A stretch of 64,000 nucleotides of DNA from a virus: IMG/VR virus record IMGVR_UViG_3300032893_000026; one strand, 5' to 3'. Below the pieces are notes generated by a model that did no database searches, was not told the DNA's origin, and saw only the letters and a list, made by a program, of their open reading frames with translations. The translations under genes and the position numbers were made by a program. This document shows positions 1 through 58,241 of this stretch, piece after piece. Every line of letters starts with the position of its first letter. The first letter of the stretch is position 1.

Positions 1-428
1 TCCGGCTCCCGTAATCCGCCGTGCCCTGGCTGTTGACCTGCGCCGCGCTTCCGATGCAGTAGTCCTGGAATAGGGGCACGCCCGTGCAACTGTCGACCAC
101 CTGCACGAGCAGGTCCGAGGACTGTGTCGCGACGGGCGTCTGGTCGGGACTGGTGGCCGAAATGGTGTGGAAGTTGTACCCCCACAAGTACGCGCCGTCC
201 GCCGCCGCTATCTGGTAGAAGAACGTGTCGAAGGGGTTGACCGGCTCCCCCTGGTCATCCGGCACCACGTACCACCTCGCCCGGTGATTGACCGCTCTCC
301 GCAGGATGTCCATCTGGCCGAGGGCCTGGGGGAAGTATCTGCACGGGAGCAGTTGGAGCGCCGCGTTGTAGGTGAAGGCGTCGACAACCTGTTTGAGCAT
401 ATGTCTCTCCTCTCCTTGTCTCGACGCC

Positions 429-1310
429 TTACCTCGACGCCTTGCACGGGATTCGCCAGACCCCGTCGAGCATCACGTTGTAGGTGATCAGCGTGGAAGA
501 AGCGTTGGGCACCAACGAGGTGATGTCCATGATAATGGCTCCCCCCGCCGGGTAGATCATACTCGGCACTGGGAAAATGGCCTGATACGGCGGCCCCTGC
601 GCGGCGCTCACCCTCCCCGCGTTCAGGTATCCCTGCGGGAGCGGGAGATTGGAGAACTGCCTCTGGTTGGGGTCGTAGAGCGTGATCGAGAAGTCCTGGG
701 TGACGAGCGCCCCGGTGCCGGGCGTGGTGATGTCCGCGATCCTGATGCTCATCAACTCGAAGTCGTACTGCTCCATGATCTGGGAGATACGGGTCGGGGT
801 CTGACCAGCCGAGTAATCGACACTGTTCTGGAAGTTGAGCGAGTAGGAATACTTGACCTCGCGGTAGTCGTAAGGCGTGCGGTGGAAGATCGGGCTCGTC
901 CCCGCCGCGAATCTCTTGACTCCCATGAATGCGATGTAGGCGTAGTACACGCCCGAGTTATTGGCCCTGCTCACGGTGAACAAATCAAAACGGATGGAGT
1001 TATTCACGTCGTAGAGCTTCTCCGGTACGACAGGCCAGCAATTGGGCATGACCATGCCGGTGGTCGGACTGCCGTTCGCGTACGCGCCCGAGGCGTTCTT
1101 CAGATTGAACCTTCCCCCGTTGGCCGCCGTGTCCACCACATTCGGCACTCCGAGGACGCGCCTCAGGACGAACTGCGAATCTCCTTGCAGGGGCAGTGCT
1201 ATGTCGTTGTAGTTCGCGCCGTCCGCGAGGGAGGTCGCGTCATAGACGTAGGCGAAGGGATAATCGACGAACCCCGCCGGGGTTACATAAGGCTCTTCCG
1301 GGAACTTCAT
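429..1310 (-). CDS. Tandem two-domain jelly-roll-like capsid protein (293 aa)
   Basis: Both halves resemble each other and the 149-aa neighbour: DSQFVLRRV/DFELMSIRI/DFAWRAIV; VVPEKLY/FPVPSMIYPAGG/VFPEIIIPAGG; FMGVKRF/LDGVWRI/FRGVKRY. Fold call is inference. Repeated at 58270-59151. Confidence 0.6.
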   Translation of the reverse strand: MKFPEEPYVTPAGFVDYPFAYVYDATSLADGANYNDIALPLQGDSQFVLRRVLGVPNVVDTAANGGRFNLKNASGAYANGSPTTGMVMPNCWPVVPEKLYDVNNSIRFDLFTVSRANNSGVYYAYIAFMGVKRFAAGTSPIFHRTPYDYREVKYSYSLNFQNSVDYSAGQTPTRISQIMEQYDFELMSIRIADITTPGTGALVTQDFSITLYDPNQRQFSNLPLPQGYLNAGRVSAAQGPPYQAIFPVPSMIYPAGGAIIMDITSLVPNASSTLITYNVMLDGVWRIPCKASR

Positions 1311-1348
1311 CTCCAGTCTCCTTTCCTCTTCTTTGCCTTGAGGTCAGG

Positions 1349-1798
1349 CTACTTGGAGATATCCGCCAGCCGGTACCGCTTCACCCCGCGAAAGGCGATC
1401 TGAATCGTGTTCGACTGCCCGCTGATATCCTGAATGTCGATTCCGATCCTGCCGCCCGCCGGGATGATGATCTCCGGGAATACGGGCCAGGGACTCGCCG
1501 CGTCTGCCACGATGTTGGCCGAGGCCACAAACCCGTTGCTCAAATAGTATCCCTGCGAGTCGCTGAAGCGGATCGAAAACGCGCCGGTAGCCAGTCCTAT
1601 CACAATGGCCCTCCAGGCGAAGTCCGCGTCGTTGGTAGTCGCGACGGTCTGGTCGCTGAGCTTCTGGTTGGCGGTGAGGCTCACGTCATACGGGTACGTG
1701 AAGTCGACATCCGTGTACCCTTCCGGGCTGGCGTCCGTCACCCCGTTGAACACGGGAGCGGACTGGGGATTGAAGATCGGGGAATTGAGAGCGCCCAC
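1349..1798 (-). CDS. Single jelly-roll-like capsid protein (149 aa)
   Basis: GTG start with GGAG RBS; alternating beta-strand pattern; clear paralogue of both halves of 429-1310. Confidence 0.6.
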   Translation of the reverse strand: MGALNSPIFNPQSAPVFNGVTDASPEGYTDVDFTYPYDVSLTANQKLSDQTVATTNDADFAWRAIVIGLATGAFSIRFSDSQGYYLSNGFVASANIVADAASPWPVFPEIIIPAGGRIGIDIQDISGQSNTIQIAFRGVKRYRLADISK

Positions 1799-1840
1799 TT
1801 TTGTATCTCCTTCAGTGCCCGGGATCCAATAACCCCAGGC

Positions 1841-1857
1841 GATTTAGACTCTAAATC
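1841..1857. promoter_or_regulatory. 17-bp palindromic operator-like site GATTTAGACTCTAAATC
   Basis: Perfect odd-length palindrome 43 bp upstream of the 1798 start; one of 15 copies in the genome. Confidence 0.8.
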
Positions 1858-2067
1858 CTGCCGCCGCCGGGTGCGCTTCCGGTGCCTCTCCCTATCTGCC
1901 ACTGGCCCTGCTTCCCGCCCCCCGGTCCTGAAGGAGCAACCAGGGGGCGGGAGAGAAGCCATCAGGTACGGGAGCGGGACCGGCCCGGCCTTCGCGGCAC
2001 TTCGGATGGCGTATCGCGCGATGCGTGCCGTCGGCCTGCCGACCAGCCTGCCGATCCACCCGGCTCT

Positions 2068-2670
2068 CTACTGCACGCCGCGTGCGTACAGCCCGTCGAG
2101 CAGGCACACCAGGGTGAGCCCGGTGCCTCCCGAGGCGGAGGCGGTGAGCGTGGCGGAGGTGCCGTTCAACTGGCCGTAGAACGTCATCTGGTTCTCGATG
2201 ACGATAGGGATCGCGAGTTTGTGCATGGACTCGCGCCCCGGCTTGCCGTTGCCGAGGATCGTGGTGGACGAGGTGGTGATCGCGGCGTAGATTCCGCCGC
2301 CCGCATTGTAGTACCAGAGCGGGCCACGCTGATACGGCTTCTGTCCGAGATAGAACTCGAAGCAGAACCCGTTCAGGATGGTGATCAGATCCGTCAGGTA
2401 GATGTCCTCCGAATAACGGATGCGGAAGCCGAAGATCGAGAAGGCCTCCGGGGCGGCCAGTTTCTGCGACTGGGTGAGGTTCGTCAGGGCCAGGGTCTTG
2501 CTGCTGGCCGGGCCCACGTTGGTGAACAGGGCCGTGGTCAACACCGTCACGGACGAGCCCGCGTTGAGGGCCACCGTGTCGTAGAGCGGGGTGTGCTGCA
2601 CGTCCATCCGATTGTTCACGTACACTTCGGAGTTGAACGCATCGACGATCATCTGTTGCTGCGGAGTCAT
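2068..2670 (-). CDS. Candidate major capsid protein, single jelly-roll-like (200 aa)
   Basis: RBS AGAGGA; beta-rich (LYDTV, TNL, PEAFSIFGFRI, IPIVIEN, LLDGLYAR); C-terminus parallels LDGVWRI of 429-1310; follows the Arg-rich core gene. Confidence 0.6.
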   Translation of the reverse strand: MTPQQQMIVDAFNSEVYVNNRMDVQHTPLYDTVALNAGSSVTVLTTALFTNVGPASSKTLALTNLTQSQKLAAPEAFSIFGFRIRYSEDIYLTDLITILNGFCFEFYLGQKPYQRGPLWYYNAGGGIYAAITTSSTTILGNGKPGRESMHKLAIPIVIENQMTFYGQLNGTSATLTASASGGTGLTLVCLLDGLYARGVQ

Positions 2671-2814
2671 TAATTTTTCCTCTGCTGAAGCTGGTTGACC
2701 TACGTTGAATTCGAGGGGCCCGGATCACTTACCCGGGCCCCAGGTCCTAGCAAGGTGTCCAGCACCGGCATCGAGTCCCGGGTCATCCCCGGAACCCCGC
2801 TAAGACGCCGGGCG

Positions 2815-3696
2815 CTAGAAAGCGGTGCCGAAGGCCCGCGCGAGTCCGTTCATGGTGACACGGGCGTTGGTCGGCGTGGCAGGAGCCGGAGCCGGGATGG
2901 CGGCGCGGATCGGGTTCTGCGGAACCACGAACTGGCCGGGCATCAGGTCGCCGAGCCCAATCGGCACTCCCCCGACGGTGAAGCCGGGCAGGAAGGCGTT
3001 CAGGGCCACGGAGGCCACCTGCATGAGGCCGCCGAACATGACGCCGTTGCCGAACTCGGGATCGAGCTTTCCGGCGCCCCAACCGGACGCCACCGCAGCC
3101 ACGGCGGAGATGATCACGCGTCCAAACGTGGTGGAGCCGAACGATCCGGTGATCGAGGTGGGGATGAGGGTGGGGATGAACTTCGTCGCCGCCACGCCCA
3201 CCAGACCACCGCCGATCAGCTTGAGGCTGTCCTTGGAGGTGAACGGGTGTCCGAGCAAGCCCGGATTCCGGCGGCGGTGACTCACGCGCCTCCGGGGGTT
3301 CTTCGCGTAATGACGGCGGCGGTTCCTCCGCTTGGGTGCCACGAACACCACGCGGGTGGCGTTGCGTCGGCGGCGGCGGGCGTAGCGGCGCGGGTTGCGG
3401 GCAACCCGGCGGCGGCGCACGTTCTTCACTTTGCGTCTGCGTCTTACCATGGTGCTTCTCCTTATGGGATTGAGGGACCCGAGTGTCACCACCAGGGCCG
3501 GGTTGGTTCTGCGGGTTCTCCTTCGGCGTGTTTTGCGCGACACCTGGACCTTTCTCCGCTTGGGATTCGTCTTGCGACGTCGGAGGGCGGCCTTCTGCCG
3601 GGCAGTTCCGAAGAACTTGATTTGTTTTGCGGTCATCCGCCTCCGCTTCCGGTGGCGGGAATTAGCCAGCCGCTTGACTTTGGTTGTGACTGCCAT
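2815..3696 (-). CDS. Arg-rich DNA-condensing core protein with C-terminal hydrophobic helices
   Basis: About 145 N-terminal residues dominated by R/K with repeated NP motifs; then GG/A-rich hydrophobic segments; AAGGAG RBS at 3696 and again at an internal ATG (3450). Confidence 0.7.
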   Translation of the reverse strand: MAVTTKVKRLANSRHRKRRRMTAKQIKFFGTARQKAALRRRKTNPKRRKVQVSRKTRRRRTRRTNPALVVTLGSLNPIRRSTMVRRRRKVKNVRRRRVARNPRRYARRRRRNATRVVFVAPKRRNRRRHYAKNPRRRVSHRRRNPGLLGHPFTSKDSLKLIGGGLVGVAATKFIPTLIPTSITGSFGSTTFGRVIISAVAAVASGWGAGKLDPEFGNGVMFGGLMQVASVALNAFLPGFTVGGVPIGLGDLMPGQFVVPQNPIRAAIPAPAPATPTNARVTMNGLARAFGTAF

Positions 3697-3729
3697 CGTG
3701 ACTCCTTTGACTCAGGCCTCCTTAGGCCA

Positions 3730-4068
3730 CTAGGCCGCCAGGGAACAGGGCCGTTGCAGGACCACGATATAAGTCCCGGCGGAACCGGCCACGTTGCCTT
3801 TGCTGAAAGTGACGATATTGGAGTTCGTCAGTACAGCCGCGATGGTGCATACGGCTGTTCCCACCACGTTGGGGGTGATCGTGACGAGCGGGAAGTTGAA
3901 GGCCAACTGCGCCGTCGAGAGCCCCCAGTTGTGGGTCATCACAAAGCTGGTGTCGGTGTCCGCTCCGATTGCCACAGTAGCCGTGATGGTATTGCACTTC
4001 TTTGCCTGTGCGGCAGTGGGAGGCGTAACACCGGCCACCGGGTAAGCGTAAGTGACTGTGACTGCCAT
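3730..4068 (-). CDS. Small beta-rich virion protein (112 aa), possible capsid decoration
   Basis: T/V/A-rich beta pattern with THNWG motif; RBS AAGGAG; lies in the capsid operon. Confidence 0.45.
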   Translation of the reverse strand: MAVTVTYAYPVAGVTPPTAAQAKKCNTITATVAIGADTDTSFVMTHNWGLSTAQLAFNFPLVTITPNVVGTAVCTIAAVLTNSNIVTFSKGNVAGSAGTYIVVLQRPCSLAA

Positions 4069-4097
4069 TTCTTTCTCCTTTCCTTAGCCCTGTGGGG

Positions 4098-4853
4098 CTA
4101 CTGTCTTGCTTCGACTACATCCGTTGCATTCTGGTCCTCCTCCCCCTTGCAAGGGAGGTGGGCCACGGATCTCATGCCGGGCGCGACGGCCCGGACCTTA
4201 AGGTGCACGATCTCCAACCGGGGATCGACCTTGATTACCGCGCCCCCGTCCTTGGCGCGGTAACAGAAACTGATGTCCTCTCCCAAGAAGCCCATCTCTG
4301 TCCTCCCGTCCACAATCGGGCGGAAGGGCCTGTCGCCAGCCATGCGTCCGATCCGGCTGCGCATGAGCACGGCGGGGAACCCGGTCCAGTCCACGGAGAT
4401 CGGGATCTGTCCCAGGAGAGCCGTCACCCGGATCGGCTTGCACCGGATGCCGTCTTCGGAGGAGCGGTATCCACAACTGGGAACGGCGTGGATATCGTAG
4501 CCATCCGGCTGGCAATAGCACCATGCCGACACCATGTCGAGCATGGGATCGTCGAACATGTCGTTGAGCAGGATCTTGAACTGGTCGAAGGTGAGCAGGT
4601 TGTCATCGTCCATCCACAGGATGTAGTCCGCAACGACTCCGCCTTGCCCCTTCATGACCCCGTTCCAGATCGTGGACCTCGTCGCGTACACGTTGGACGA
4701 GTACCCGAGATAGAACTGCACGTTATAGGCGTAATCCGGGTCCATGATCAGTTGGGCCAGGAAAGTTGTCCAGTTACTCACCCACACATTCGGGAATTGC
4801 TCTCCCGGGATGCAGATGGCGAGATTCAATGGCTTCCGCTCGTTCTCACTCAT
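4098..4853 (-). CDS. GT-A (family 2-like) glycosyltransferase
   Basis: Likely start MSENERKP; LAICIPG N-terminal strand, WMDDD DxD motif, TGFPAVL and GEDISFC motifs. Confidence 0.8.
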   Translation of the reverse strand: MSENERKPLNLAICIPGEQFPNVWVSNWTTFLAQLIMDPDYAYNVQFYLGYSSNVYATRSTIWNGVMKGQGGVVADYILWMDDDNLLTFDQFKILLNDMFDDPMLDMVSAWCYCQPDGYDIHAVPSCGYRSSEDGIRCKPIRVTALLGQIPISVDWTGFPAVLMRSRIGRMAGDRPFRPIVDGRTEMGFLGEDISFCYRAKDGGAVIKVDPRLEIVHLKVRAVAPGMRSVAHLPCKGEEDQNATDVVEARQ

Positions 4854-5143
4854 ACGTCTTCCGCTCCTTCGCTTTGACTTGCTCCGCTCGTTCCGCTCGA
4901 TCTCCCCTTGCCGTAGTACTTCCGGTAGAGCCACCACCCCGCCCCCACGGCAAGCAGGAGGAGGATGACGGATTGCGACTGCGATTGCGATTGCGACTGG
5001 TTGGACTGGATCGGGATGCAGTCCCAGAACCCCGTGCTGGCGTCGAGCACCGCGTAGTAGCCCGCGCCGCACCCCGGGTCGACACCGATGCTCTCGGCGG
5101 TGACGCCACCGGCAGGCTGAGATACCAAGTCAGAGAGGTCCAT
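4850..5143 (-). CDS. Small single-pass membrane virion protein
   Basis: Cys pair, QSQSQS linker, hydrophobic VILLLLAVGAGWWLY segment followed by RKYYGKGR. Confidence 0.6.
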   Translation of the reverse strand: MDLSDLVSQPAGGVTAESIGVDPGCGAGYYAVLDASTGFWDCIPIQSNQSQSQSQSQSVILLLLAVGAGWWLYRKYYGKGRSSGTSGASQSEGAEDV

Positions 5144-5145
5144 AT

Positions 5146-6390
5146 CTAGTTCTCGATCCCCGGACTCACGCCGACGAGCGGCTGCTTGATGAAGTACTGC
5201 CCGCCCGTGATGTAGAGCTTCTGGTTCTGCGGCTCGTATTCGAGGTAAGGCCTCTCGCCCGTGTCCTCGCCCAAGTCGTGCTGATAGATGATCTCCTCGA
5301 AGTCATCGAACTTCTTCTTCGTCTTGTAAGCCAGATTCCAGTACCGCTTGTTGTTGGTGGGCTTCGCGCCGGGCTCCGGCTCACTGAATACGCCGAGCAC
5401 CATTCGGTCCTTCAGCCATTTCTTCTCGTCCATCTTGAGCGTCGCCAGATCCACCGACTGGTCGCCGCCCTCGATGTACAGTTGCCTGCCGTCCTCGCTC
5501 GAAGCCAGGAACGGAGGGTTCTTCTCGAAGTCGATTCGGACGCGGATCCTGGTTGGGGTGTCGACGTAGATCTCCGTCAGGGTGCCGAGAGCGGCCAGAT
5601 GCTCATGCTCGTGGTACTCCTCCTCGATCACCACCTCTTCCGTCGACGGAGCGCCGTGGAAGGACTCGTACAGATCGGCGGCGGCACCGGCAGGATTACG
5701 TTTGGCTCTGGGCTTGTAGTCCGAATAGAGGATGTAGTTCTGGCGCCCGGCCCGGTCTTCCTTGTATACACAGGTGGCCGCGTACCCCTTGGCCCGAATG
5801 CTTTGGACAAGCTGGTCCGCATACTGATCGTCTTCCGGGGTAACAGCAGGGAGCTTGAGACTGTATCTGTAACTCCTCCCCCTGAAGGAGAAGGATTTGG
5901 GATTCTTCTTCCAGTCCCACTTACTCCGCTTGTGGCCCCTGGCATACTTCTTTTCCATGGTGGCGCACACCGCTCCCGGATCATATTCCTTCCCTACTCC
6001 CGCCTCGCACCGCTCAAACCACCCTGGCCCCGACCCTGGCCGCGCACCCGAATGGTGCCCCGGATTTGCTTCCCCAAACATGCCCTGATACGGATTGCCC
6101 TTCGACTTACCGAATCCGTGGAGCTTGGCCCTGGCCGCCGCGTAGGCCTCCTCGCGCGTCTTGCCCCCCACTCCCATGGGCTCCCCGGTCTTGTTGAACC
6201 ACTCCCACCTGCCGTCCGACTGGGTGAGCCGGATCTCTTCCGTGCTTCCGTCATCCGTGGTATAGGTGGCCTTGTCCGGGTCCTGCTCGTCTGGAGTCGG
6301 GCCATCCGGGTTAGGCCTTCGTCCCCCGTGTCTCTCCAGCACGTCGAAGTAGGAGGTATCGTGCTGGCCCATCTCAAGGCTCGATGCCAT
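5146..6390 (-). CDS. NP-motif modular virion/core protein (414 aa)
   Basis: Five NP motifs, mostly in a basic context, separate distinct segments; a globular-looking C-terminal domain of about 185 aa starts at KRNPAGAAADLYESFHG. Confidence 0.55.
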   Translation of the reverse strand: MASSLEMGQHDTSYFDVLERHGGRRPNPDGPTPDEQDPDKATYTTDDGSTEEIRLTQSDGRWEWFNKTGEPMGVGGKTREEAYAAARAKLHGFGKSKGNPYQGMFGEANPGHHSGARPGSGPGWFERCEAGVGKEYDPGAVCATMEKKYARGHKRSKWDWKKNPKSFSFRGRSYRYSLKLPAVTPEDDQYADQLVQSIRAKGYAATCVYKEDRAGRQNYILYSDYKPRAKRNPAGAAADLYESFHGAPSTEEVVIEEEYHEHEHLAALGTLTEIYVDTPTRIRVRIDFEKNPPFLASSEDGRQLYIEGGDQSVDLATLKMDEKKWLKDRMVLGVFSEPEPGAKPTNNKRYWNLAYKTKKKFDDFEEIIYQHDLGEDTGERPYLEYEPQNQKLYITGGQYFIKQPLVGVSPGIEN

Positions 6391-6391: not shown

Positions 6392-7948
6392 TTAGTTGCC
6401 CTCCTCCTTCTCAATGCGTGCGATGGCATTCTTGACCTTCTTCGCCCCGCCCGAGTGTGCGTCGAATGCAATCACAATACCCCTGGACCGCAGCCGGGCG
6501 TCATCGAGACACATGCCACACTTCTTGTGCCCCGGAGATCCCACGCACTGGATATTCTTGTCGATGGCCTCATTCGGGCATGGCTGAATCCACACGCCCG
6601 TCTCCTCGTCCTTGTAGAGTCCCTTCTGCTTGAAGTGATCCACAACCATGGCCGTGCCCCACCCCCGGCTCATGGCCTCCTTGGCATCCGCCGCCGTCTC
6701 GCACGAGGCGAGTACGGAGATCTTCGATCCCCACGAGGAGCGGGAGGTGTCGCGCCATGCGTGGGTATAAGCCCACACTTTCTCGCGCCATCCCTGGCAT
6801 GCATCCGCCAGCATCCGCACCGGTCCGTTGCCTACCGCGTCGCCGACCACATGCAGCCGGAGCGGGAGCCACTTACCCTTGCGCTCGTTGATCTCGATCT
6901 GGGTCTTGATGGCCTCCGCCTCCGCCCTGGCGCAGTCCTCCGCGTCCGCGCCCGAGGAGTTGGCCGCCCGATTGAGCCGGAGCCGGGTGATGTTAGTCGG
7001 CCCATACTCCGCATAACACCCATACCCTAAGAAGGGGCAGGGTCGCGACGAGTTCCCCTGGTTGGGGCACGAGGCGTTGCTCACATAGGTGGCCGAGGCC
7101 ATCCCCACCTTCGCGTTTGCACTGGACTCCGCGAGGGTGGCGAGGGATCCGGGCGCGGCGGAGGGATTGGGCATCGTCCTCTCTCCTGCGGCGGAGATGT
7201 GGGTGACGAGGTCGAATTTAGAATCTAAATCGTGATCCGGGTTGGACACATAGTGCCTCACCAGATGGGCGGGCAGGGTGACCATGTTGGTGGAGAGGGT
7301 GTCGTAGATATCCAGACCGGACTTGACCACGGACTTGGCGACCCTGGCGGCGCGGCGGGCATGGTGTTGGACGGAGGAGTTGTGCTTCTTGCGGCGGGTG
7401 GTGGCCCACTCGTCCAGAAATCTCTTGGCATCGTCGACGGTGTCGAATCGCGAGTAAGGATCGGAGGAGACGCGATAGTCTCCGGTAGGCGTGCGGAAGA
7501 TCTTCTTCCCGCGATATTCCATCACCGGGCCCTCATACTCCTTGCCCGTGCCCGAGGACTTGACTTTCGTACCGGTGCTGGCCCTGGTTGTTTGGGAGGG
7601 GGCCTGGGAAGATGGACTTCGCCCAGGAGCGGTCTGGGCGGCGGAAGACCCGGCCCCCGCATACCTCGACGCCGGGCGGCCAGCCAGCCGGTCATCGAAG
7701 CCTTGATCGTAAGCGGCACGCAGACGCTGGAGGACGGGCCTGCCGTGCGAGGCATACCCGTGGTCGCAGGCCCACTGGTCAAACAGGCCGGTGTCGGGAG
7801 ACTCGAATCCGGCGAGATAGGCCGAGTGGAGGGACTGGGGGAGTGCGCTCTTCGACTTGGCGGCACACTTCCGCGCTTCCTTCTTCCTCCCGAACCCGAG
7901 GAAGTTGGCCTTGCGCCGGATTATGACTCGCCGCTTCATGCCACTCAC
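6392..7948 (-). CDS. Basic NP-motif protein fused to a gp88/DUF7227-like Cys-rich domain
   Basis: C-terminal half: SCP..CPF..GCYA, LRLHVVGD, WAYTHAW, LASCET, CP..C..C.MC pattern. Family recognised by eye only. Confidence 0.55.
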   Translation of the reverse strand: MSGMKRRVIIRRKANFLGFGRKKEARKCAAKSKSALPQSLHSAYLAGFESPDTGLFDQWACDHGYASHGRPVLQRLRAAYDQGFDDRLAGRPASRYAGAGSSAAQTAPGRSPSSQAPSQTTRASTGTKVKSSGTGKEYEGPVMEYRGKKIFRTPTGDYRVSSDPYSRFDTVDDAKRFLDEWATTRRKKHNSSVQHHARRAARVAKSVVKSGLDIYDTLSTNMVTLPAHLVRHYVSNPDHDLDSKFDLVTHISAAGERTMPNPSAAPGSLATLAESSANAKVGMASATYVSNASCPNQGNSSRPCPFLGYGCYAEYGPTNITRLRLNRAANSSGADAEDCARAEAEAIKTQIEINERKGKWLPLRLHVVGDAVGNGPVRMLADACQGWREKVWAYTHAWRDTSRSSWGSKISVLASCETAADAKEAMSRGWGTAMVVDHFKQKGLYKDEETGVWIQPCPNEAIDKNIQCVGSPGHKKCGMCLDDARLRSRGIVIAFDAHSGGAKKVKNAIARIEKEEGN

Positions 7949-7963: not shown

Positions 7964-8001
7964 TGTTACTTACCTGTTACTTACCTGTTACTTACGTTAC
8001 C
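7964..8001. repeat. 11-bp tandem repeat (TGTTACTTACC) x3 plus partial
   Basis: Read directly; AT-rich, in the intergenic gap upstream of 6392-7948. Confidence 0.9.
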
Positions 8002-8561: not shown

Positions 8562-8574
8562 CGTCTGATATCTC

Positions 8575-8865: not shown

Positions 8866-8868
8866 CGG

Positions 8869-9680: not shown

Positions 9681-9682
9681 GC

Positions 9683-51831: not shown

Positions 51832-52497
51832 TTAGGTCAACGCATAGATGAGGAGCAGGACTCCACCGGCCAGAGCGAGTATCTCGGGTGTGCCGATAGT
51901 ACCCTCGCCGCCGTCATCGTCGGAATTATCTGTGCCTTGTGCCACACTACTGGCTGGTAGTGTGTCACCGGAAGTATCACCTCCGGCGCCTCCGGATCCA
52001 CTTCCAGCACTACCCCCGGTACTTTGGTCCCCTGTGCTTTGTCCGGTACTGTCTGTATTGCCTGATACCAGATCGCTCAGCGGGGTGTTGGGATCGATGC
52101 CCAATTGGCTGGCTACGAAGGCCGCGTACTGGTTGGGGTTGTTGGAGTCGGCCTGGGGCGCATAGCCGGGGTAGACGCCCGGCTTGCCCGCGAAGAACTC
52201 TTCGAGCGTGAGGCCCTTATTGATGTTGAGTTGGATCTGATTGTCGAGCGCCGCCCACCCCGTAGCCAGATCGGGAAAGACGGCGTACCCGCCGCTCGTC
52301 CCCGTCTGCCCCACGCCCGCTCTCAGATTCCCGGGGTTGTTGTTGCGGACGGCGATGGACGATGCCCCGGAAGTGAAGCCCTCGAATTGGGCTATCGACT
52401 GGGCCATGTCCGTCACCAGGGTCGAGTACCCCAGGCCCAAGCCCCCGAGTCCGGGCCTGCCCCACCTGTATCGGGATGGAATCCTTCCGGTCAACAT
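51832..52497 (-). CDS. Lysozyme-like virion protein (RNNNPGN family) with C-terminal TM
   Basis: IAQFEG, RNNNPGNLR, YAVFPD..TG..A, YAP..DSNNP..Y; GLGGLG leader; S/T/G linker; TM. Confidence 0.75.
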   Translation of the reverse strand: MLTGRIPSRYRWGRPGLGGLGLGYSTLVTDMAQSIAQFEGFTSGASSIAVRNNNPGNLRAGVGQTGTSGGYAVFPDLATGWAALDNQIQLNINKGLTLEEFFAGKPGVYPGYAPQADSNNPNQYAAFVASQLGIDPNTPLSDLVSGNTDSTGQSTGDQSTGGSAGSGSGGAGGDTSGDTLPASSVAQGTDNSDDDGGEGTIGTPEILALAGGVLLLIYALT

Positions 52498-52501
52498 AGG
52501 A

Positions 52502-52720
52502 TTAGGTGGCCCACGGGTTGAACCTGACCATTCTGTCGAGAGCGTCTCTCCTCTGCTTGCACCCGCCGCAGGGCTCTATCCCGAGGGCCCTGGTGAATCT
52601 CTCGATTGCGCTCCCCGCCCCTATCGCGCTATGCAGGCCCGGCACCGGAATGGCAAACCTGGGATCCTGCCCCTGGCTCTGGGCTTGTTGGGCTTGCCCG
52701 GAATTCAAGTCGATTTGCAT
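52502..52720 (-). CDS. Small CGGC-motif protein
   Basis: T.ALGIEPCGGCKQRR..L pattern; start lies within a palindrome variant (52712-52728). Confidence 0.55.
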   Translation of the reverse strand: MQIDLNSGQAQQAQSQGQDPRFAIPVPGLHSAIGAGSAIERFTRALGIEPCGGCKQRRDALDRMVRFNPWAT

Positions 52721-52753
52721 TCTAAATCCTCCCTCTCCCGCCTCAGTCTTATT

Positions 52754-53251
52754 CTACCTGCCGAGTACCTTGAGCAGGATGGCGATGACCCAACCGATGA
52801 TAGCCACAAAGGTCATGCCGGTCTTCCAACTCCACCGGAAGCCCGTCTCGGCGGCGGCCTTCTCGGCCTTCAGCACGTTGACCTCTTCCTGAATCTCCTT
52901 CACCTCCCGCGCGATGTTGGCGGCGGTAGTTTCCGCCATGACAATCTTGGCCGCCATGTTGGAAAGGGAATCGAGTTGACTCTGCGCCGCCACCCGCGCG
53001 TCTCCCCGCATGTCTTCGAGGATCTTCCGCATCTGCCGCCGGTCCTCCCTGCTTTCTTCCTTGAAACCGGAGAAATCGAGGGCCTCGAAGCGGGCTTCCA
53101 GCTTGGTGATCCGCGCGTCGTTCTCGCGCACGGTGCCCATGCCGTCGATCACCGTGCTCACCTGTGCCTCCAGCCGGGCCAGAGCTTTGTGTAGCTCCTT
53201 CTCGAAGGTCACACAGTAGGGGCTGAATGGGGGGTTGTCAGACTCCGACAT
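52754..53251 (-). CDS. Coiled-coil protein with C-terminal TM (holin-like)
   Basis: Long heptad region, then MTFVAIIGWVIAILLKVL. Confidence 0.5.
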   Translation of the reverse strand: MSESDNPPFSPYCVTFEKELHKALARLEAQVSTVIDGMGTVRENDARITKLEARFEALDFSGFKEESREDRRQMRKILEDMRGDARVAAQSQLDSLSNMAAKIVMAETTAANIAREVKEIQEEVNVLKAEKAAAETGFRWSWKTGMTFVAIIGWVIAILLKVLGR

Positions 53252-53322
53252 GCGGCGCTCTCCACTCTCCTCAGAGCGGGGTGATCGAACCATCTTCACC
53301 ACGGCTCCCATACATCTTCTCC

Positions 53323-54621
53323 TCACACACTGTACAAGGTCAGGTAGCGCGGCCAGAAGAATCCATACAGGGCGGCGGTGACCTTGCTGGTGCCCACCTG
53401 GATCGATCCCGAGGTGTTGGGCACGTTGACGATGGCGTTGACTGTCCAGTGACTGAGCAGGACCTGCCCCTCAGTGAGCGGAAACGGGCTTGCCGGGCTT
53501 CCCAGCAGGAACGGGCAGTTGCCCAGGTCCTTGAGGTAGCGCCGGTTGATCTGGATGCGGGTGAGAATGTCTCCTCCACCCTGCACAAAGCCGGTGCCCG
53601 AGTACTCCCACCAGAACCCCGTCAGAATTCCGTCGTACCCGGTGGGCACGGTGAGGGAGCAGATGAGATTGTCGCCGGAGGCCGCCGTCGGGGTGGTGAT
53701 CGACTGGGATATGCGGAACGGGACGGCCTGTGGAGGCACGGCGGAGAACTCGTCCTCCCACGGCAGGAGGTTGCGCCACTGGGCGGGGATCGAGCACAAG
53801 TCCAGGAATCTCACTCTCTTCCACCGGGCCTTCTCGATGGCGAGGCAGTTGTCGTAGAGGTTGGGGCGGAAGCAGTTCGCGCGGGGAGCGGGCGGCCCCC
53901 CGGGAGAGACGGGATTGTCGACGGGATTGATCGGCGGCGGGGGCGTGGGCCCCGGCAGCACCAGGATCTCGATCACCGACTGATCCACATCCGCCGGGGT
54001 GTGGGTCAGGGCCACCGTTTCGATCACCGACTGGTCCACGTCTCCCGGCGGAGTGACGTAGGAGAGGACCTCGATTACGGATTGGTCCACGTCCCCCGGC
54101 GAGTGGGGCAGGACGGTGGCCTCGATGGACGAATAATCCACGCGGATGCGGTTGGTGGTGGCTGTAGATTCCCCACGGGCTACCGCCACTCCCTCCGCCT
54201 TGATGAACTGCACGGCCACTGCGCCGCCGCCGGGCGAGGCGTTGCCCTCCGCAGTCACCAGGATGACCGCATAGGCTTCCCCATATGCCTGCGCCAGACC
54301 TTCTGCGGTGGGGGAGTAGACAAGCTGTTTGATGCGGAACGGGATGGGCCCGAAATAGTATCCGTTGCCACCCCATTCCGTGAAGTCAATCCCGAGCCCA
54401 CCCATGGGGGTGTCTGTGTAAGACCCGGTGGGGGCGTAGGCAAACTGCCCGATCTCAACCAGCCCGTACCCTCCCGGGTCGGGGAGATAGGACACGATCT
54501 CCGGCTGGAAGGACCCCTGGGCCATCGCGACAAACGAAATGGCAAGCCCCGTCATGAGCACCTGGGAGGGGGCCCCTGTGTGCTCGACCTGCGCCGCGTA
54601 TTGGATGATGGTCTGCGCCAT
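53323..54621 (-). CDS. Spike-like protein with C-terminal jelly-roll-like domain
   Basis: Three DVDQSVIE repeats, PTPPPP hinge; C-terminal region of about 190 aa paralogous to 57055-57693. Confidence 0.6.
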   Translation of the reverse strand: MAQTIIQYAAQVEHTGAPSQVLMTGLAISFVAMAQGSFQPEIVSYLPDPGGYGLVEIGQFAYAPTGSYTDTPMGGLGIDFTEWGGNGYYFGPIPFRIKQLVYSPTAEGLAQAYGEAYAVILVTAEGNASPGGGAVAVQFIKAEGVAVARGESTATTNRIRVDYSSIEATVLPHSPGDVDQSVIEVLSYVTPPGDVDQSVIETVALTHTPADVDQSVIEILVLPGPTPPPPINPVDNPVSPGGPPAPRANCFRPNLYDNCLAIEKARWKRVRFLDLCSIPAQWRNLLPWEDEFSAVPPQAVPFRISQSITTPTAASGDNLICSLTVPTGYDGILTGFWWEYSGTGFVQGGGDILTRIQINRRYLKDLGNCPFLLGSPASPFPLTEGQVLLSHWTVNAIVNVPNTSGSIQVGTSKVTAALYGFFWPRYLTLYSV

Positions 54622-54655
54622 ACCCGGGTCCTCAGGCCCGAGGCCTTACGTCAGT

Positions 54656-55561
54656 CTACGATGTGGCGATCCAGAGCGAAACTTTGGTCTGCGAGGTGTT
54701 GGAGTCCGTGATGCAGACCCAGTTATGAGTGTCGAACGCAGTGACCGTGTCCATCGCGAACGGCCCACAGATCAGGAGCGCGTCCCAAAGCTGGCAGGCA
54801 ACTTTTGGCTCGTCTCCGAAAGCCGTGAGCCCCCAAGCCAGCATGGCGTCCATGGAGAACAGGTTGCCGTTCTGGTAGCGGTAGAATCGTTCGCTGCCCG
54901 CAGTCACGTTGGCGTTCCCGCCCCAGGCCGATATCGGAGTAACGAAGAGCGGCATGGAGGGGTAGTTGGAATTGTTCCATCGATTGTTGGCATTCTCCCA
55001 TATTGAAGTCCCGAATAAGCAGACGAAATTCGGAGCCGCGTTCTGCCCCCAGTCGACGGCTGAGTACCGGAAGTTGTTCTGCGGATCGTCCGTGCTCGAA
55101 TCCGACAGCGTGTTGGTATGCAGGATCCCGATGTATTGCGGCATGGGAAGGAAGAATGAGGGGACGTAGGGGCACGAGAACAGGCAGAACTCGCGGGCCA
55201 CCGTCGAATCCCCCGGCACCCACAGGACAAACTGGTAAGGGTTGGCTACAATCTGCCACACCTTAGCCACGCCGGGCAGGAGCGAGGCGCCATAAGCGGT
55301 CCCCACCGTGCTTGCCTTGGCCCCGTCCGTGGTGACCATGCTGACCTGAATGCAGGTCCCCCCATTGTCCTTGAAGTGGGCGCGTAGCGCATATCCCTGC
55401 GAGGTGGTACCGGTCTGCAACACCATGTCGGTGGTGCCGTGGCCGCTGATCGTGCTCCAGCCAGCCGCGTTGAGGGCCGCCTCGACCCCGGCGCAGATGT
55501 TGGCCTTGGTGTCCCCAGTGAAGGTGGTGGTGTATCTGGTGGTTGCGTATTGGACTGCCAT
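54656..55561 (-). CDS. Virion spike/fibre-like protein
   Basis: T/G/N/aromatic beta-rich; LNAAGWSTISG N-terminal motif; lies in the spike cluster. Confidence 0.5.
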   Translation of the reverse strand: MAVQYATTRYTTTFTGDTKANICAGVEAALNAAGWSTISGHGTTDMVLQTGTTSQGYALRAHFKDNGGTCIQVSMVTTDGAKASTVGTAYGASLLPGVAKVWQIVANPYQFVLWVPGDSTVAREFCLFSCPYVPSFFLPMPQYIGILHTNTLSDSSTDDPQNNFRYSAVDWGQNAAPNFVCLFGTSIWENANNRWNNSNYPSMPLFVTPISAWGGNANVTAGSERFYRYQNGNLFSMDAMLAWGLTAFGDEPKVACQLWDALLICGPFAMDTVTAFDTHNWVCITDSNTSQTKVSLWIATS

Positions 55562-55565
55562 GGCA

Positions 55566-55997
55566 TCACTCCTTGAACACGAGATTGCCCGCCGCGATGC
55601 TCAACTGGGCACCGTTGGCGAGGCTGTAGGTTACCGGGGCGGCCCACGATCCGAACGCGGCCACGCGCCCGAAGTTGCCGCCCGTCGGCGCGTCGAACAA
55701 CGCGATGCCCGCCACTGTGATCGGAGAGGTGAGCCCGGCCACTATCGCGAACGTGACGCTCGTCCCCACCACAACCGTCTCCACACCGGACACCACCGAA
55801 GGCGGGGGGAAGTTTCCGGAATTATTGGTTATGGGAATACGGGCAAGCCCGGTGTAGGAGGCCTGCACCAGTCCCGTCCCATCCCCGGCGGTAGGCAGGG
55901 AGACGAGCAGCTGCGCGTACCACGTCGCCGGAGCCCCCGATCCCAGGTCCTGCTGCAAGTTCGCGGACGCATAAGTGTTTCCGATTCCTGCGCTCAT
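55566..55997 (-). CDS. Tail-fibre-associated-type beta protein
   Basis: YTG.ARI...GIALFDAPTGGN...G.L.F pattern familiar from phage tail modules. Confidence 0.6.
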   Translation of the reverse strand: MSAGIGNTYASANLQQDLGSGAPATWYAQLLVSLPTAGDGTGLVQASYTGLARIPITNNSGNFPPPSVVSGVETVVVGTSVTFAIVAGLTSPITVAGIALFDAPTGGNFGRVAAFGSWAAPVTYSLANGAQLSIAAGNLVFKE

Positions 55998-56020
55998 GTG
56001 TTGCTCCTATACCTCTACCT

Positions 56021-57037
56021 CTATACCTCTACCTTCGGACCGAACGGGACCGTGGCGAAGTCCGATATGTCCCACGGATTGCCGCTCACCGGGTTGATGT
56101 CGTAAGGCGCCCAAAGCATGTGGTACGTGGTGGTGAGCGCCATGCCCGCCATACCCGTGCCGTTGGCGCACACCGAACTCACCTTCCGCACGCCCACCGT
56201 GTCCACCTGTGCGTTGAGCACATGCTGTACCGCTTTGATGGTGCTGGTGACCGGAACGGCACTGACCGAATGGATGTACTGATCCACGTCTCCCACCGTG
56301 GCGTCCGTCACGTAGGTGGCCGGGTTGGGCGGGATCGAGGACACCAGATTGAAGTGCGTCGCCCCGGCGGATGTGATCCATTGCAGGGGAGTCGAGTCGC
56401 TGACCGGAGGCCCCGAGTACACTCGCACCGGCCCGAGGAAGTCATCGTTCACCCCGCCCGAGGTGTCGCAGATGTAGTAATCGTCGATGGCCACGCTCAG
56501 CCCGCTGCCAGGACCCGAGAGCTGCACCGTGTTGGGGCTGCCGTAGCCGAACGGATCCGTGTTGATGCCCGTATAGTGAAGCACCTGGAATCCGTTGACG
56601 TTGACCGTGATGTGTCCGCCCGAGGTGGCGAACTTGATCTTGACCTCCAGGTAGTTCCAGTTATTGCTCTGAACGACTCCGGGGGCCGATGGGCCATAGT
56701 AGAGGTTGGCGGGATCCGGCCCGATCTGGACAAACACGGACCCATCCGAGTTGACTCTGAGGGAGCCGCACTTATTGCCCGTGGTGCCTCCCGCCAGAAA
56801 GATGATGAAATTGCCTGCGCTCACCCCGGTGACGTACTTGGCGCCCGCTCCGGCAATCCAGGTATCGCGTGCGGTGAACGATACCGCAGGCCCAATCGGC
56901 CCTCCCTCATAGCACTGAGGACCGGTCCTCGCGAGTCCCGGCGTGGCTACGATGGAGCCGCACCCAATCGGCACTTCGGTGTATTTCTGGCCGAGATCGA
57001 TGTAGTGATCGAACGAGTCCGTAAACAGTAAGGCCAT
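56021..57037 (-). CDS. ConA/laminin-G-like receptor-binding virion protein
   Basis: MALLFTDSFDHY, W.YLEVK, DDYYICD.SG..NDDFLG.VRV, NP.SG.PW motifs. Confidence 0.65.
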   Translation of the reverse strand: MALLFTDSFDHYIDLGQKYTEVPIGCGSIVATPGLARTGPQCYEGGPIGPAVSFTARDTWIAGAGAKYVTGVSAGNFIIFLAGGTTGNKCGSLRVNSDGSVFVQIGPDPANLYYGPSAPGVVQSNNWNYLEVKIKFATSGGHITVNVNGFQVLHYTGINTDPFGYGSPNTVQLSGPGSGLSVAIDDYYICDTSGGVNDDFLGPVRVYSGPPVSDSTPLQWITSAGATHFNLVSSIPPNPATYVTDATVGDVDQYIHSVSAVPVTSTIKAVQHVLNAQVDTVGVRKVSSVCANGTGMAGMALTTTYHMLWAPYDINPVSGNPWDISDFATVPFGPKVEV

Positions 57038-57054
57038 GGCAGTCTCCTCGTCTC

Positions 57055-57693
57055 CTATCTCGGATAGAACCAGCCGAACAGGGCGCACACGATCCTGCCG
57101 CCTACCAGTGCGCTCGTCGCCGCGTGATTGACCAGATACCTCACGATCTGTCCCGACTGCAATCGGATCGCGCCGGAATTGATGGCGTAAGGAGTAGTGA
57201 GGGATCCGAGCGTGGTGTTGATCGCGCCGTAGTCTTTGGCGTAGCGGCGGTTGATCTGTACCCGCCAAGTCAAATCCCCTCCGCCTTCCACAAACCCCGT
57301 CCCGGTCCACAGATTGACGTTGGAGATGATCACCCCATCATGCCCTACAGGCACCTGGAAACTGAGCACCTGCACGTCCGTGCCGGAGGCCGCAGGCAGG
57401 GGTATGGAGGAGATCTTCGAGTATCTCTGCCCCTGCAAGGGCTGCTTGACCCACGGCGGCTCCGGGTATCTGTGGCCGGGACAGAGATTCGCCAGCCCCC
57501 CGCACCGCACGATCTCCATCCACAGGGCGTACTCCTGCATGAGCATCCAGTTGAACTCATTGGGAGGCCACACCCGTTGCAGCAGGTTGCGCGGCACAGG
57601 CGTCCCCTGCGGCCCGTCCTGGCCCCACATGAGCCCGGAGTAGAGGTCCGCAGAGTAGTTGGTGAGCTTGGGAGTCAGCAAAGGTCTGGGCAT
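57055..57693 (-). CDS. Jelly-roll-like minor capsid/vertex protein (212 aa)
   Basis: VPVGHDGVI..WTGTGFVEGGGDL..RVQINRRY.KD.G..ALFGWFYPR matches the C-terminus of 53323-54621. Confidence 0.6.
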   Translation of the reverse strand: MPRPLLTPKLTNYSADLYSGLMWGQDGPQGTPVPRNLLQRVWPPNEFNWMLMQEYALWMEIVRCGGLANLCPGHRYPEPPWVKQPLQGQRYSKISSIPLPAASGTDVQVLSFQVPVGHDGVIISNVNLWTGTGFVEGGGDLTWRVQINRRYAKDYGAINTTLGSLTTPYAINSGAIRLQSGQIVRYLVNHAATSALVGGRIVCALFGWFYPR

Positions 57694-58241
57694 TTGGCTT
57701 TCTCCTCGACTAACAGGCACGGCTCCGTGAACATGAGCAGAAGCTGGCAGTAGATCGTGTTGGCCGTGCGATTCGAGATGTACACGTTGACCAGGGCCGG
57801 GTCCAGTATCAACCGTGGCTGAGTGAGCAGAACCGGGCTCATCCGGCTCCCGTAATCCGCCGTGCCCTGGCTGTTGACCTGCGCCGCGCTTCCGATGCAG
57901 TAGTCCTGGAATAGGGGCACGCCCGTGCAACTGTCGACCACCTGCACGAGCAGGTCCGAGGACTGTGTCGCGACGGGCGTCTGGTCGGGACTGGTGGCCG
58001 AAATGGTGTGGAAGTTGTACCCCCACAAGTACGCGCCGTCCGCCGCCGCTATCTGGTAGAAGAACGTGTCGAAGGGGTTGACCGGCTCCCCCTGGTCATC
58101 CGGCACCACGTACCACCTCGCCCGGTGATTGACCGCTCTCCGCAGGATGTCCATCTGGCCGAGGGCCTGGGGGAAGTATCTGCACGGGAGCAGTTGGAGC
58201 GCCGCGTTGTAGGTGAAGGCGTCGACAACCTGTTTGAGCAT
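57675..58241 (-). CDS. Jelly-roll-like minor capsid protein (188 aa); 5' part duplicated at 1-400
   Basis: LLVQVVDSCTG..LFQ and LLTQPRLILDPALVNVYISN echo FSIRFSDSQG and FPEIIIPAGG.I.IDI of the 149-aa protein. Confidence 0.5.
   Translation of the reverse strand: MLKQVVDAFTYNAALQLLPCRYFPQALGQMDILRRAVNHRARWYVVPDDQGEPVNPFDTFFYQIAAADGAYLWGYNFHTISATSPDQTPVATQSSDLLVQVVDSCTGVPLFQDYCIGSAAQVNSQGTADYGSRMSPVLLTQPRLILDPALVNVYISNRTANTIYCQLLLMFTEPCLLVEEKAKCPDLC

Follow-up and report, generated by a model that had tools for sequence, protein, structure and literature searches.

Jelly-roll viruses without a packaging ATPase are known among prokaryotes: SPV1, FLiP and the metagenomic Odin group have none, and assembly around the genome has been proposed for all three (PMC8812541; PMC5894146); for the Odin and FLiP-like viruses the "conspicuous absence" of the enzyme has been put down to this mode of assembly (PMC5894146; PMC8812541). 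The preliminary description of the DNA analyzed here had presented the portogloboviruses as the known ATPase-less jelly-roll case, which was too narrow, since FLiP-like viruses and the Odin group also lack the enzyme (PMC8812541; PMC5894146). The genomes of these viruses are small (7 to 20 kb): SPV1 (Portogloboviridae) is archaeal, with a 20-kb genome, while the Odin viruses (7 to 11 kb) and FLiP (Finnlakeviridae; ~9 kb, ssDNA) have canonical double-jelly-roll capsid proteins.

HHIV-2, HCIV-1 and P23-77, of the Helvetiavirae/Halopanivirales type, have an FtsK/HerA packaging ATPase and genomes of 17 to 31 kb. PRD1 and PM2 (Tectiviridae/Corticoviridae; 10 to 15 kb) have a P9-type ATPase adjoining the capsid gene and replicate through PolB or a rolling circle. 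Known double-stranded DNA phages fill their capsids by an ATP-driven motor.

The reading that we favor for the present DNA, at about an even level of confidence, is that of a closed 57.8-kb virus of a widespread family, with a jelly-roll shell and no motor, that assembles around condensed DNA. The ATPase-less principle is already known; genome size and the bacterial dsDNA context are new, the genome being five to six times larger than those of Odin and FLiP. The family (45 to 62 kb) has no sequence similarity to SPV1 and no close structural homology to its capsid or core proteins, and differs from it in a tandem jelly roll, its own PolA module and a protamine-like protein in place of SPV1-type core proteins. 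With PRD1 and PM2 it shares the features of a bacterial non-tailed dsDNA virus with many small membrane proteins and candidate jelly-roll shell or vertex proteins, but neither their ATPase nor their modes of replication were found here. From the Helvetiavirae/Halopanivirales-type viruses it differs in lacking the ATPase, in having two jelly rolls fused and in showing no sequence similarity to them. The FtsK/HerA packaging ATPase of Bamfordvirae, usually encoded beside the capsid gene, is absent from the window and from six relatives; Odin and FLiP are the exceptions among described viruses (PMC5894146).

Genome closure and relatives

The window, a stretch of 64,000 nucleotides, contains one 57,841-bp unit wrapped on itself, positions 57842 to 64000 being a letter-for-letter copy of 1 to 6159. 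The junction of 57841 with 1 is crossed by a minus-strand ORF (57675 to 58241; GC3 0.86) that is kept in all relatives, and a 30.6-kb Logan contig from a wetland metagenome, which may derive from the source sample, bridges the junction by matching 56631 to 60000 without a difference. Direct terminal repeats are flagged for related IMG/VR records. The closed unit of the preliminary description is thus borne out by the overlap, the ORF and the contig alike, and is best explained as the complete genome, closed into a circle or circularly permuted, of a bacterial virus that is uncultured and known from wetland metagenomes.

1 to 57841, no strand: complete virus genome unit (exact overlap, junction ORF, bridging contig, direct terminal repeats in relatives)

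Six further sequenced relatives (49 to 62 kb, most with terminal repeats) have the same structural gene order: the C-terminal domain of the 441-aa protein, (a glycosyltransferase-like gene), a 112-aa protein, the protamine-like protein, and the 200-, 149-, 293-, 188- and 212-aa proteins. An integrated copy with a different replication module is present in a Bryobacteraceae (Acidobacteriota) genome. The family is widespread and apparently undescribed, with genomes of 45 to 62 kb and at least one member that integrates in a Bryobacteraceae chromosome.

Shell, membrane and basic proteins

The conserved 25-kb late operon encodes candidate jelly-roll-type shell proteins (the 293-aa protein, its 149-aa paralogue and a 200-aa beta protein), several very basic proteins, roughly 12 small membrane proteins, a putative transglutaminase-like protease and fibre-like proteins.

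57675 to 58241, minus strand: 188-aa conserved structural-module protein across the genome junction (syntenic in all relatives)
429 to 1310, minus strand: 293-aa tandem jelly-roll protein, candidate shell protein or capsomer (confident structure model)
1349 to 1798, minus strand: 149-aa protein with a single domain, paralogous to the 293-aa protein; candidate for a vertex protein or a second shell protein (BLASTP, synteny)
2068 to 2670, minus strand: 200-aa beta-rich protein, candidate major shell protein (conservation)
2815 to 3696, minus strand: protamine-like protein (sequence, charge and TM scan, orthologues)
5146 to 6390, minus strand: 441-aa protein with a variable basic N terminus and a conserved C-terminal domain of ~170 aa (14 relatives)
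6392 to 7948, minus strand: 518-aa basic protein with a C-terminal Cys-rich DUF7227 domain (Pfam PF23872, E 1.7e-14; phrog_2554)
8001 to 16466, minus strand: head of the late operon (TM scan, Pfam, conservation)

In an unbiased search of the 293-aa model against 48,161 PDB chains, capsid proteins ranked highest (HHIV-2, SPMV, P23-77 VP17, PBCV-1 and HCIV-1, together with the STIV turret protein), and the best Foldseek matches in the PDB were double-jelly-roll capsid proteins, PRD1 P3 among them. The 149-aa protein, whose gene is syntenic in all relatives, matches the two halves of the 293-aa protein by BLASTP (E 9e-10 and 3e-5). The 200-aa protein is the product of the most conserved gene of the family, with 44 to 74% identity across relatives compared with 27 to 33% for the 293-aa protein; its gene is flanked by spacers of 144 and 269 nt and followed by a hairpin of -41 kcal/mol, and the nearest neighbor of its Atlas model outside the family is NCLDV Capsid_N (TM 0.48). 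The 188-aa junction protein has no family match. Any assignment to a capsid type is tentative: the 293-aa protein is built as a tandem jelly roll, yet its two-domain arrangement matches no solved double-jelly-roll capsid protein.

The protamine-like gene lies directly upstream of the shell genes. The basic N-terminal region of its product (~160 aa) is 40% Arg plus Lys, the C-terminal half is hydrophobic, and the net charge of the whole protein is +67; from its sequence, the protein is predicted to be membrane anchored. Across 16 orthologues, Arg plus Lys stays at 32 to 41% and Asp plus Glu at or below 3%, and each orthologue has 5 to 9 NP dipeptides (~1 expected), many at conserved positions. 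The head of the operon encodes a membrane-anchored, transglutaminase-like protein (15702 to 16466; a putative protease with a weak Transglut_core match, E 0.0067), ~10 small membrane proteins and a basic 259-aa protein (14247 to 15026; net charge +38); from this stretch, 8001 to 8585, 12583 to 13434 and 15702 to 16466 are kept in relatives. A TM-like segment occurs in 14 of the 31 late-operon proteins, which, together with the +67 protamine-like protein, would suggest a virion with an inner membrane and a nucleoprotein core. The virus is known here from its genes, and both the icosahedral shape and the internal membrane are assumptions.

The same proteins could instead form a pleomorphic, enveloped or vesicle-like virion, a membrane-wrapped nucleoprotein with the jelly-roll proteins as spikes or matrix, in principle like the particles of plasmaviruses or pleolipoviruses. 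The very large proportion of proteins with a C-terminal membrane anchor and the failure of the 293-aa arrangement to match any capsomer are consistent with such a particle, for which a motor would be unnecessary. However, each jelly roll is structurally closest to shell proteins from icosahedral membrane viruses, conservation of the 200-aa protein is extreme, the 293/149-aa pair recalls hexon-plus-penton sets, and lysozyme-like lysis genes suggest lytic release; we regard this alternative as rather improbable.

51832 to 53326, minus strand: probable lysis or entry genes (phrog_2276 and phrog_873 domain matches; TM scan)
53323 to 57693, minus strand: fibre or host-recognition block (PHROGs, conservation, repeats)

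The former encode a lysozyme-like protein that has a TM helix at its C terminus, a protein of 72 aa and a TM-anchored coiled-coil protein. The fibre block encodes a 212-aa protein (57055 to 57693), a phrog_2448 protein (56021 to 57037), proteins of 143 aa (phrog_240) and 301 aa, and one of 432 aa that carries DVDQSVIE repeats and whose C terminus is a paralogue of the 212-aa protein; three 51-nt repeats lie at 53956 to 54099.

Packaging, replication and maintenance genes

The ~60 ORFs scanned with PHROGs and/or Pfam HMMs, every ORF of at least 200 aa included, yielded no head, packaging, portal or tail-structure family.

16587 to 19247, plus strand: 886-aa protein (840 aa from the ATG at 16725), conserved in every relative
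19359 to 30262, minus strand: early and maintenance region (Pfam, PHROGs, NCBIfam)
30994 to 37930, minus strand: split family A DNA polymerase (Pfam, phrog_17)
38338 to 39150, minus strand: structure-specific nuclease with ERCC4 and helix-hairpin-helix domains (Pfam ERCC4, E 1.9e-10; HHH)
41206 to 42090, minus strand: Sak4-like RecA-fold ATPase with a P-loop (AAA_24, E 1.6e-11; phrog_124, E 2e-12)
44617 to 46386, minus strand: DinG/Rad3/YoaA-family helicase with a P-loop (Pfam Helicase_C_2, ResIII, DEAD; NCBIfam YoaA/DinG)
47192 to 47923, minus strand: serine recombinase or invertase (phrog_95 and phrog_125, E ~1e-30)

No terminase was found by Pfam or PHROGs in ORFs of at least 200 aa, nor was there a spare P-loop protein; no HK97 capsid or portal matched the scanned ORFs, and the two proteins that were folded (293 aa and 840/886 aa) have neither an HK97 nor a portal fold. 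An FtsK/HerA ATPase was found neither in the window nor in the six relatives, and PF01580 is absent from five related records, while it was detected in all 14 control genomes. In six-frame Walker-A scans, only the Sak4-like (ASEKSGKT) and DinG-like (motif I, SPVGTGKS) ORFs were recovered. These results agree with the preliminary description, which had listed no terminase, portal, HK97 capsid or FtsK/HerA ATPase and no P-loop proteins beyond these two. Its question of whether relatives also lack a packaging ATPase can be answered for the six relatives and the visible part of the provirus, where none is recognizable; the additional P-loop proteins of relatives are all of replication type (D5-like, SNF2 or SF1-helicase motifs) and lie outside the structural block.

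A tailed phage with undetected head genes, or a plasmid-like element, is the account that we find least probable. Fibre-region ORFs do match PHROGs of tailed phages, although only phrog_2448 and phrog_240 (the latter a "head protein" family weakly matched by the 143-aa ORF, E 4e-5), and the sole "tape measure" match is the lysozyme-like domain of a 221-aa protein, a kind of domain that tape-measure proteins can have as well; among ORFs of at least 200 aa, none matches a terminase, portal, capsid, tail-tube or baseplate family. ParB, the serine recombinase and DUF932 would fit a plasmid, but no conjugation genes were found, and a virus is indicated by the capsid-like jelly rolls of the conserved late operon (25 kb), by lysis genes and by closed genomes of uniform size with direct terminal repeats.

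A motor may also be present in unrecognizable or moonlighting form, the 886-aa protein, the C-terminal domain of the 441-aa protein or a membrane protein acting as a new translocase or vertex channel, or Sak4 or DinG also packaging DNA; we consider this unlikely, though more plausible than the other alternatives. The 886-aa gene, the only large one on the plus strand, adjoins the start of the structural operon; homologues (568 to 745 aa) occur in the examined relatives as well as in the provirus, which has a different replication module. Its AF2 model (pLDDT 59) consists of an alpha/beta N-terminal domain, a coiled coil and a helical C-terminal domain, with no meaningful match to any fold and none to an ATPase, portal or HK97 fold, and the family has no conserved Walker or other NTP-binding motif. 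The protein thus does not look like an NTPase. The 441-aa protein, of which only the C-terminal domain is conserved, has no Pfam, PHROG or PDB sequence match. Neither of these ORFs (16725 to 19247 and 5146 to 6390), both previously named as possible hidden motors, looks like one.

Sak4 is universal in the episomal genomes (orthologues in six of six relatives) and might conceivably serve a second function, which counts against motor-less assembly. However, both Sak4 and DinG clearly match families of replication type and are located among replication genes (Sak4 between replication and recombination genes), and no strict Walker-A ORF occurs in the visible structural module and integrase arm of the provirus, which is cut by the contig end. 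The absence of a motor rests wholly on negative evidence, with two proteins folded, and a very divergent or non-P-loop translocase is conceivable.

Finally, a host DNA translocase (e.g., an FtsK-like pump) or the motor of a helper element might be borrowed to fill a preformed shell. A large genome that encodes no motor may invite the idea; no phage is known to do so, the existence of at least nine independent genomes, similar in size, speaks against a satellite, and the virus supplies its own polymerase, helicase, nuclease and topoisomerase and is in other respects self-sufficient. We judge borrowing to be very unlikely. PolA is indeed encoded by the virus, as had been described, although as a split gene: the polymerase domain (30994 to 32511; Pfam DNA_pol_A, E 8e-93) is separated by small genes from a part with UDG and 3'-5' exonuclease domains (36257 to 37930; UDG, E 7e-19). 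The early region includes a ParB-like gene (20416 to 21315), a topoisomerase-like phrog_6247 gene (22672 to 23631) and a DUF932/TIGR03299 gene (25849 to 26970).

Proposed assembly around condensed DNA

The data are best read, we infer, as assembly without a motor around condensed DNA. No motor of the virus's own would drive the genome into a preformed shell; rather, the membrane-anchored protamine-like protein and other Arg-rich proteins would condense the DNA, and the membrane and jelly-roll shell would assemble around the resulting nucleoprotein, a route like that proposed for SPV1 and the small ATPase-less Odin- and FLiP-type viruses. The co-assembly suggested in the preliminary description, though conjectural as to how the DNA gets into the particle, fits the strongly conserved, membrane-anchored protamine-like protein encoded beside the shell genes. 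To our knowledge, motor-less condensation of 58 kb would be unprecedented for a phage, which counts against this reading. More tentatively, the family may be a deep, unnamed lineage of membrane-containing bacterial dsDNA viruses of 45 to 62 kb that encapsidate DNA without any NTP-driven motor, the membrane-anchored protamine-like protein, with its conserved and repeated basic-NP motif, condensing the DNA and the jelly-roll shell closing around it. If so, motor-less assembly reaches beyond tiny genomes, and a "large-genome, no-ATPase" stage would exist in jelly-roll virus evolution.

In the adenovirus core, Arg-rich proteins (protein VII, mu) likewise condense DNA inside a jelly-roll shell. The likeness is by analogy: adenoviruses infect eukaryotes, have a packaging ATPase of their own (IVa2) and show no homology to the present family. 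On first reading of the sequence, [LMI]xGxG motifs were also noticed that are reminiscent, again by analogy, of adenain cleavage sites.

Gene content and packaging functions

The preliminary description had read this genome as that of a 58-kb non-tailed virus without a recognisable packaging motor, and at the level of motifs and HMM profiles this was borne out, because the only credible P-loops are those of a Sak4-like protein and a helicase. Scans with Pfam, PHROGs and NCBIfam covered about 60 ORFs, among them all ORFs of at least 200 aa, and gave no family match to terminase, portal, capsid, scaffold, tail-tube, sheath, baseplate or FtsK/HerA proteins. Across all six frames, Walker-A scans at strict and relaxed settings left ASEKSGKT (Sak4) and SPVGTGKS (helicase) as the two credible sites; the Sak4-like protein had no match among PDB sequences. 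The genes assigned by the scans make up a replication and maintenance module.

Predicted replication and maintenance genes (HMM scans; topoisomerase-like protein from phrog_6247)
20416-21315, ParB-like protein
22672-23631, topoisomerase-like protein
25849-26970, DUF932/TIGR03299 protein
30994-32511, split family A polymerase, polymerase domain
36257-37930, split family A polymerase, UDG and 3'-5' exonuclease
38338-39150, ERCC4 and HhH nuclease
41206-42090, Sak4/AAA_24 ATPase
44617-46386, DinG/Rad3/YoaA-type helicase
47192-47923, serine recombinase

Two unassigned ORFs had been singled out as places where a divergent packaging ATPase or HK97 fold might hide, and neither is recognisable in them. 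For the 886-aa ORF (16587-19247, plus strand; 840 aa from the ATG at 16725), an alignment of 11 family members contains no Walker A or B motif; aromatic residues, Pro and Gly occupy the conserved positions. In the model (pLDDT 59), the alpha/beta N-domain and the helical C-domain are confident, and between them lies a long low-confidence coiled coil carrying a TM-like segment. Fold searches with the whole model returned coiled-coil look-alikes only, nothing in the PDB at E below 0.29, and the AlphaFold DB look-alikes are exclusively uncharacterised proteins (best E 2e-9); the Atlas holds no model of this protein. Lacking Walker motifs and a fold match, it is not recognisable as an ATPase, portal or HK97 protein. 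In the 441-aa protein (5146-6390, minus strand), just ~170 C-terminal residues are conserved (14 relatives), a domain too small to form an HK97 fold and devoid of a P-loop; sequence searches of Pfam, PHROGs and PDB sequences gave no match, and the Atlas model is of very poor quality. Profiles of the 886-aa protein and of the 441-aa C-domain against PDB sequences yielded rows at chance level only. GK[ST] also occurs twice where the 441-aa protein is disordered and basic, at its N-terminus; neither string is conserved or preceded by a hydrophobic strand, and both were rejected as P-loops. A less likely rival reading is that a motor is present, and is either unrecognisable or moonlighting. The 886-aa protein is universally conserved in the family, at 600-890 aa, and is transcribed divergently from the late operon.

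Two side matches do fall in structural categories: a lysozyme-like domain (51832-52497) of a kind also found in tape-measure proteins, and a weak match of a 143-aa fibre-region ORF to phrog_240 ('head protein', E 4e-5). An unlikely rival reading holds that this is a non-viral element, or a tailed phage that escaped detection; against it stand the empty scans for terminase, portal, capsid and tail families and the capsid-like jelly rolls of the late operon. Atlas clusters of the family's proteins are at present Uroviricota wherever a phylum is stated.

Genome closure, relatives and an integrated copy

The final 6,159 bases of the window are an exact copy of the first 6,159, so the window comprises a single 57,841-bp sequence and then runs on into its own beginning. 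Window construction does not account for the join, since a 188-aa ORF (57675-58241, minus strand) with strong coding bias, kept in all relatives, crosses it, a wetland-metagenome contig of 30.6 kb from Logan (the sample possibly identical to the source) covers 56631-60000 with zero differences, and direct terminal repeats are the class assigned to related IMG/VR records. GC content is 62%. The minus strand carries almost every gene, the 886-aa ORF being the sole large exception; the window contains no tRNA genes. An AT-rich palindrome, ATTTAGAGTCTAAAT, occurs in 15 mostly intergenic copies within 1840-52729 (e.g., 23646-23664 and 32230-32248); a factor encoded by the virus probably uses it as an operator, promoter or terminator. 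Scanning 1-4200 for sigma-70 and terminator consensus sequences gave nothing exceeding shuffles.

Pattern-based scans identified 12 related IMG/VR contigs of 25-62 kb, and the full sequences of six (G002, G003, G005, G010, G011 and G013) were examined. Structural-block gene order is identical in all six; each has an 886-aa homologue, which diverges from the late-operon start where its position was checked (G002 and the provirus described below). The relatives, too, proved to be without a recognisable packaging ATPase: their P-loop proteins are Sak4, a DinG-like helicase and lineage-specific replication NTPases, none of them in the structural block. As the extra NTPases differ, the replication module turns over modularly around a constant structural block.

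Extra NTPases of the relatives
G002:485-1711, D5-like motif
G003:2305-4350 and G005:26485-28623, SNF2 ('DEMGLGKT')
G011:46278-47963 and G013:2890-4584, SF1-helicase motif

PF01580 (FtsK_SpoIIIE), detected in 14 of 14 control genomes, is absent from five records. The absence of a recognisable packaging motor is family-wide. To our knowledge, all dsDNA phages in culture that have an icosahedral capsid encode an ATP-driven packaging enzyme. A motor borrowed from the host is an unlikely rival reading.

On a 358-kb Bryobacteraceae MAG contig (G006:C13:1-40000, loci L051-L053), the structural module lies at 2-24.4 kb, followed by an 886-like gene (24.7-26.4 kb) and a tyrosine integrase (35982-37523), beyond which the genes are ordinary host ones, PurU-like and GH30 among them. 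The element is an integrated provirus and points to Acidobacteriota as hosts. No viral PolA, Sak4, DinG or strict Walker-A ORF was found ahead of the host genes, in an element that is cut by the contig end and whose gene set is incomplete. The replication and maintenance module has been swapped, which shows the structural module to travel with differing replication modules. Five matches in MAG bins of discordant phyla look like mis-binned viral contigs. Acidobacteriota are a dominant yet phage-poor soil phylum, and because the integrated copy sits in it, the family would offer a tractable system for protamine-like DNA condensation in phage. The glycosyltransferase-like gene of the provirus is enlarged to 1004 aa and includes a methyltransferase domain.

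Candidate shell proteins of the jelly-roll type

A 149-aa protein (1349-1798, minus strand) is homologous to each half of a 293-aa protein (429-1310, minus strand; E 9e-10 and 3e-5), so the latter is a tandem duplication. Its AlphaFold2 model, built on an 82-sequence alignment, is confident and all-beta (pLDDT 92.4, pTM 0.91). In Foldseek searches of the PDB, the lead rows were the double-jelly-roll capsid proteins of SGIV, PBCV-1, PRD1 (P3) and STIV, with E down to 4e-6 and probability up to 1.0 at a TM of just 0.2-0.3; PHM, a cellular double-jelly-roll protein (PMC8812541), was also among the matches. We read each half as a probable capsid-like jelly roll on the strength of this model; membership among canonical double-jelly-roll capsid proteins is not established. 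The family is large, with 308 relatives at E<1e-3 when 1.84 billion cluster representatives at 50% identity were searched exhaustively with HMMER; its distant members sit on contigs too short for neighbour genes. Some members reach 370-700 aa and match in two stretches (e.g., P0079, P0084, P0086, P0088 and P0089), on contigs likewise too short for gene context; extra jelly rolls, through expansion or fusion, may account for them.

Within the virus family, conservation is highest for the gene of a 200-aa protein (2068-2670, minus strand; 44-74% identity, versus 27-33% for the 293-aa protein), which we rank first among candidates for the major shell protein. Among non-family neighbours of its Atlas model, the N-terminal jelly roll of NCLDV capsid proteins comes closest (TM 0.48); its family profile gave chance-level rows only against PDB sequences. 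The spacers around this gene (269 and 144 nt) are unusually long for an otherwise tightly packed operon, and a GC-rich hairpin (1905-1960, minus strand; -41 kcal/mol, z -3.5) lies ~100 nt downstream, features that together form a high-expression or terminator signature. The 'weaker echoes' earlier perceived among the 200-aa, 188-aa and 293-aa proteins are not supported, since hhalign found no significant similarity among these families.

None of 50,697 GenBank phage records carries the 200-aa or 293-aa protein by tblastn, and 20 kb of the window had no megablast match among them; PolA matches phage records distantly only. Non-tailed jelly-roll viruses without a packaging ATPase are already known as a category; what is new, by sequence and scale, is a large and apparently undescribed family, through which the non-tailed virosphere would gain a large group.

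The late operon and a possible route of DNA entry

On the minus strand, the late operon starts at 16466, passes through position 1 and continues to about 51800.

Late operon, in order (minus strand)
15702-16466, membrane-anchored transglutaminase-like protein (weak Pfam match, E 0.0067; conserved in all relatives)
within 8001-15846, ~10 small single-TM proteins whose linkers are rich in Ser, Thr and Gly
basic 259-aa protein, net charge +38
DUF7227 protein
5146-6390, 441-aa protein, C-terminal domain conserved
glycosyltransferase-like protein and 112-aa protein
2815-3696, protamine-like 293-aa protein, net charge +67
beta-rich proteins of 200, 149, 293, 188 and 212 aa
fibre-like proteins
coiled-coil TM protein and lysozyme-like TM protein

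The protamine-like gene is conserved directly upstream of the shell genes. In 16 of 16 orthologues (e.g., L018:647-1591 and L021:9014-9889), the first 118-245 residues are 32-41% Arg+Lys with at most 3% Asp+Glu; the second half is hydrophobic. Against an expectation of about one, there are 5-9 Asn-Pro dipeptides, and many occupy conserved sites: R[LVI]ANPRR near the N-terminus, RRNPALVxTLGAxNPxRR centrally and, where the basic region ends, RRRRNPxxFG. Such a protein would tether and condense the genome on the virion membrane, after which the shell would close around the nucleoprotein; as a mechanism, motor-less assembly around condensed DNA is plausible. The rival reading of a pleomorphic, enveloped particle would suit the TM-like segments present in 14 of 31 late proteins at a fairly strict threshold; the jelly-roll models speak for a shell.

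Portogloboviruses had been taken as the only jelly-roll viruses without a packaging ATPase; such enzymes are absent not just from SPV1 but also from FLiP-like viruses and the Odin group. According to Yutin et al., P-loop ATPases are unlikely to be overlooked, and small viruses without a motor are assembled around the genome (PMC5894146, PMC8812541). The genomes of these groups measure 7-20 kb, and the present one is three to eight times larger. The few earlier cases fitted the idea that motor-less assembly serves small genomes only, a size limit that a widespread 45-62 kb bacterial family with its own replication machinery and no packaging enzyme would challenge.

[KR]xNP motifs of a similar kind occur in the 441-, 259- and 518-aa proteins, and NP motifs could be a processing or targeting signal. 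An [LMI]xG[LM]G motif proposed in the preliminary description, linked to the transglutaminase-like and membrane proteins of 8001-15846, resembles adenovirus protease sites. Three 51-nt tandem repeats (53956-54099) code for PGDVDQSVIE units of a 432-aa fibre-like protein, whose C-terminal domain is paralogous to the free-standing 212-aa protein (57055-57693) and turns up again in several of the relatives' fibre genes.
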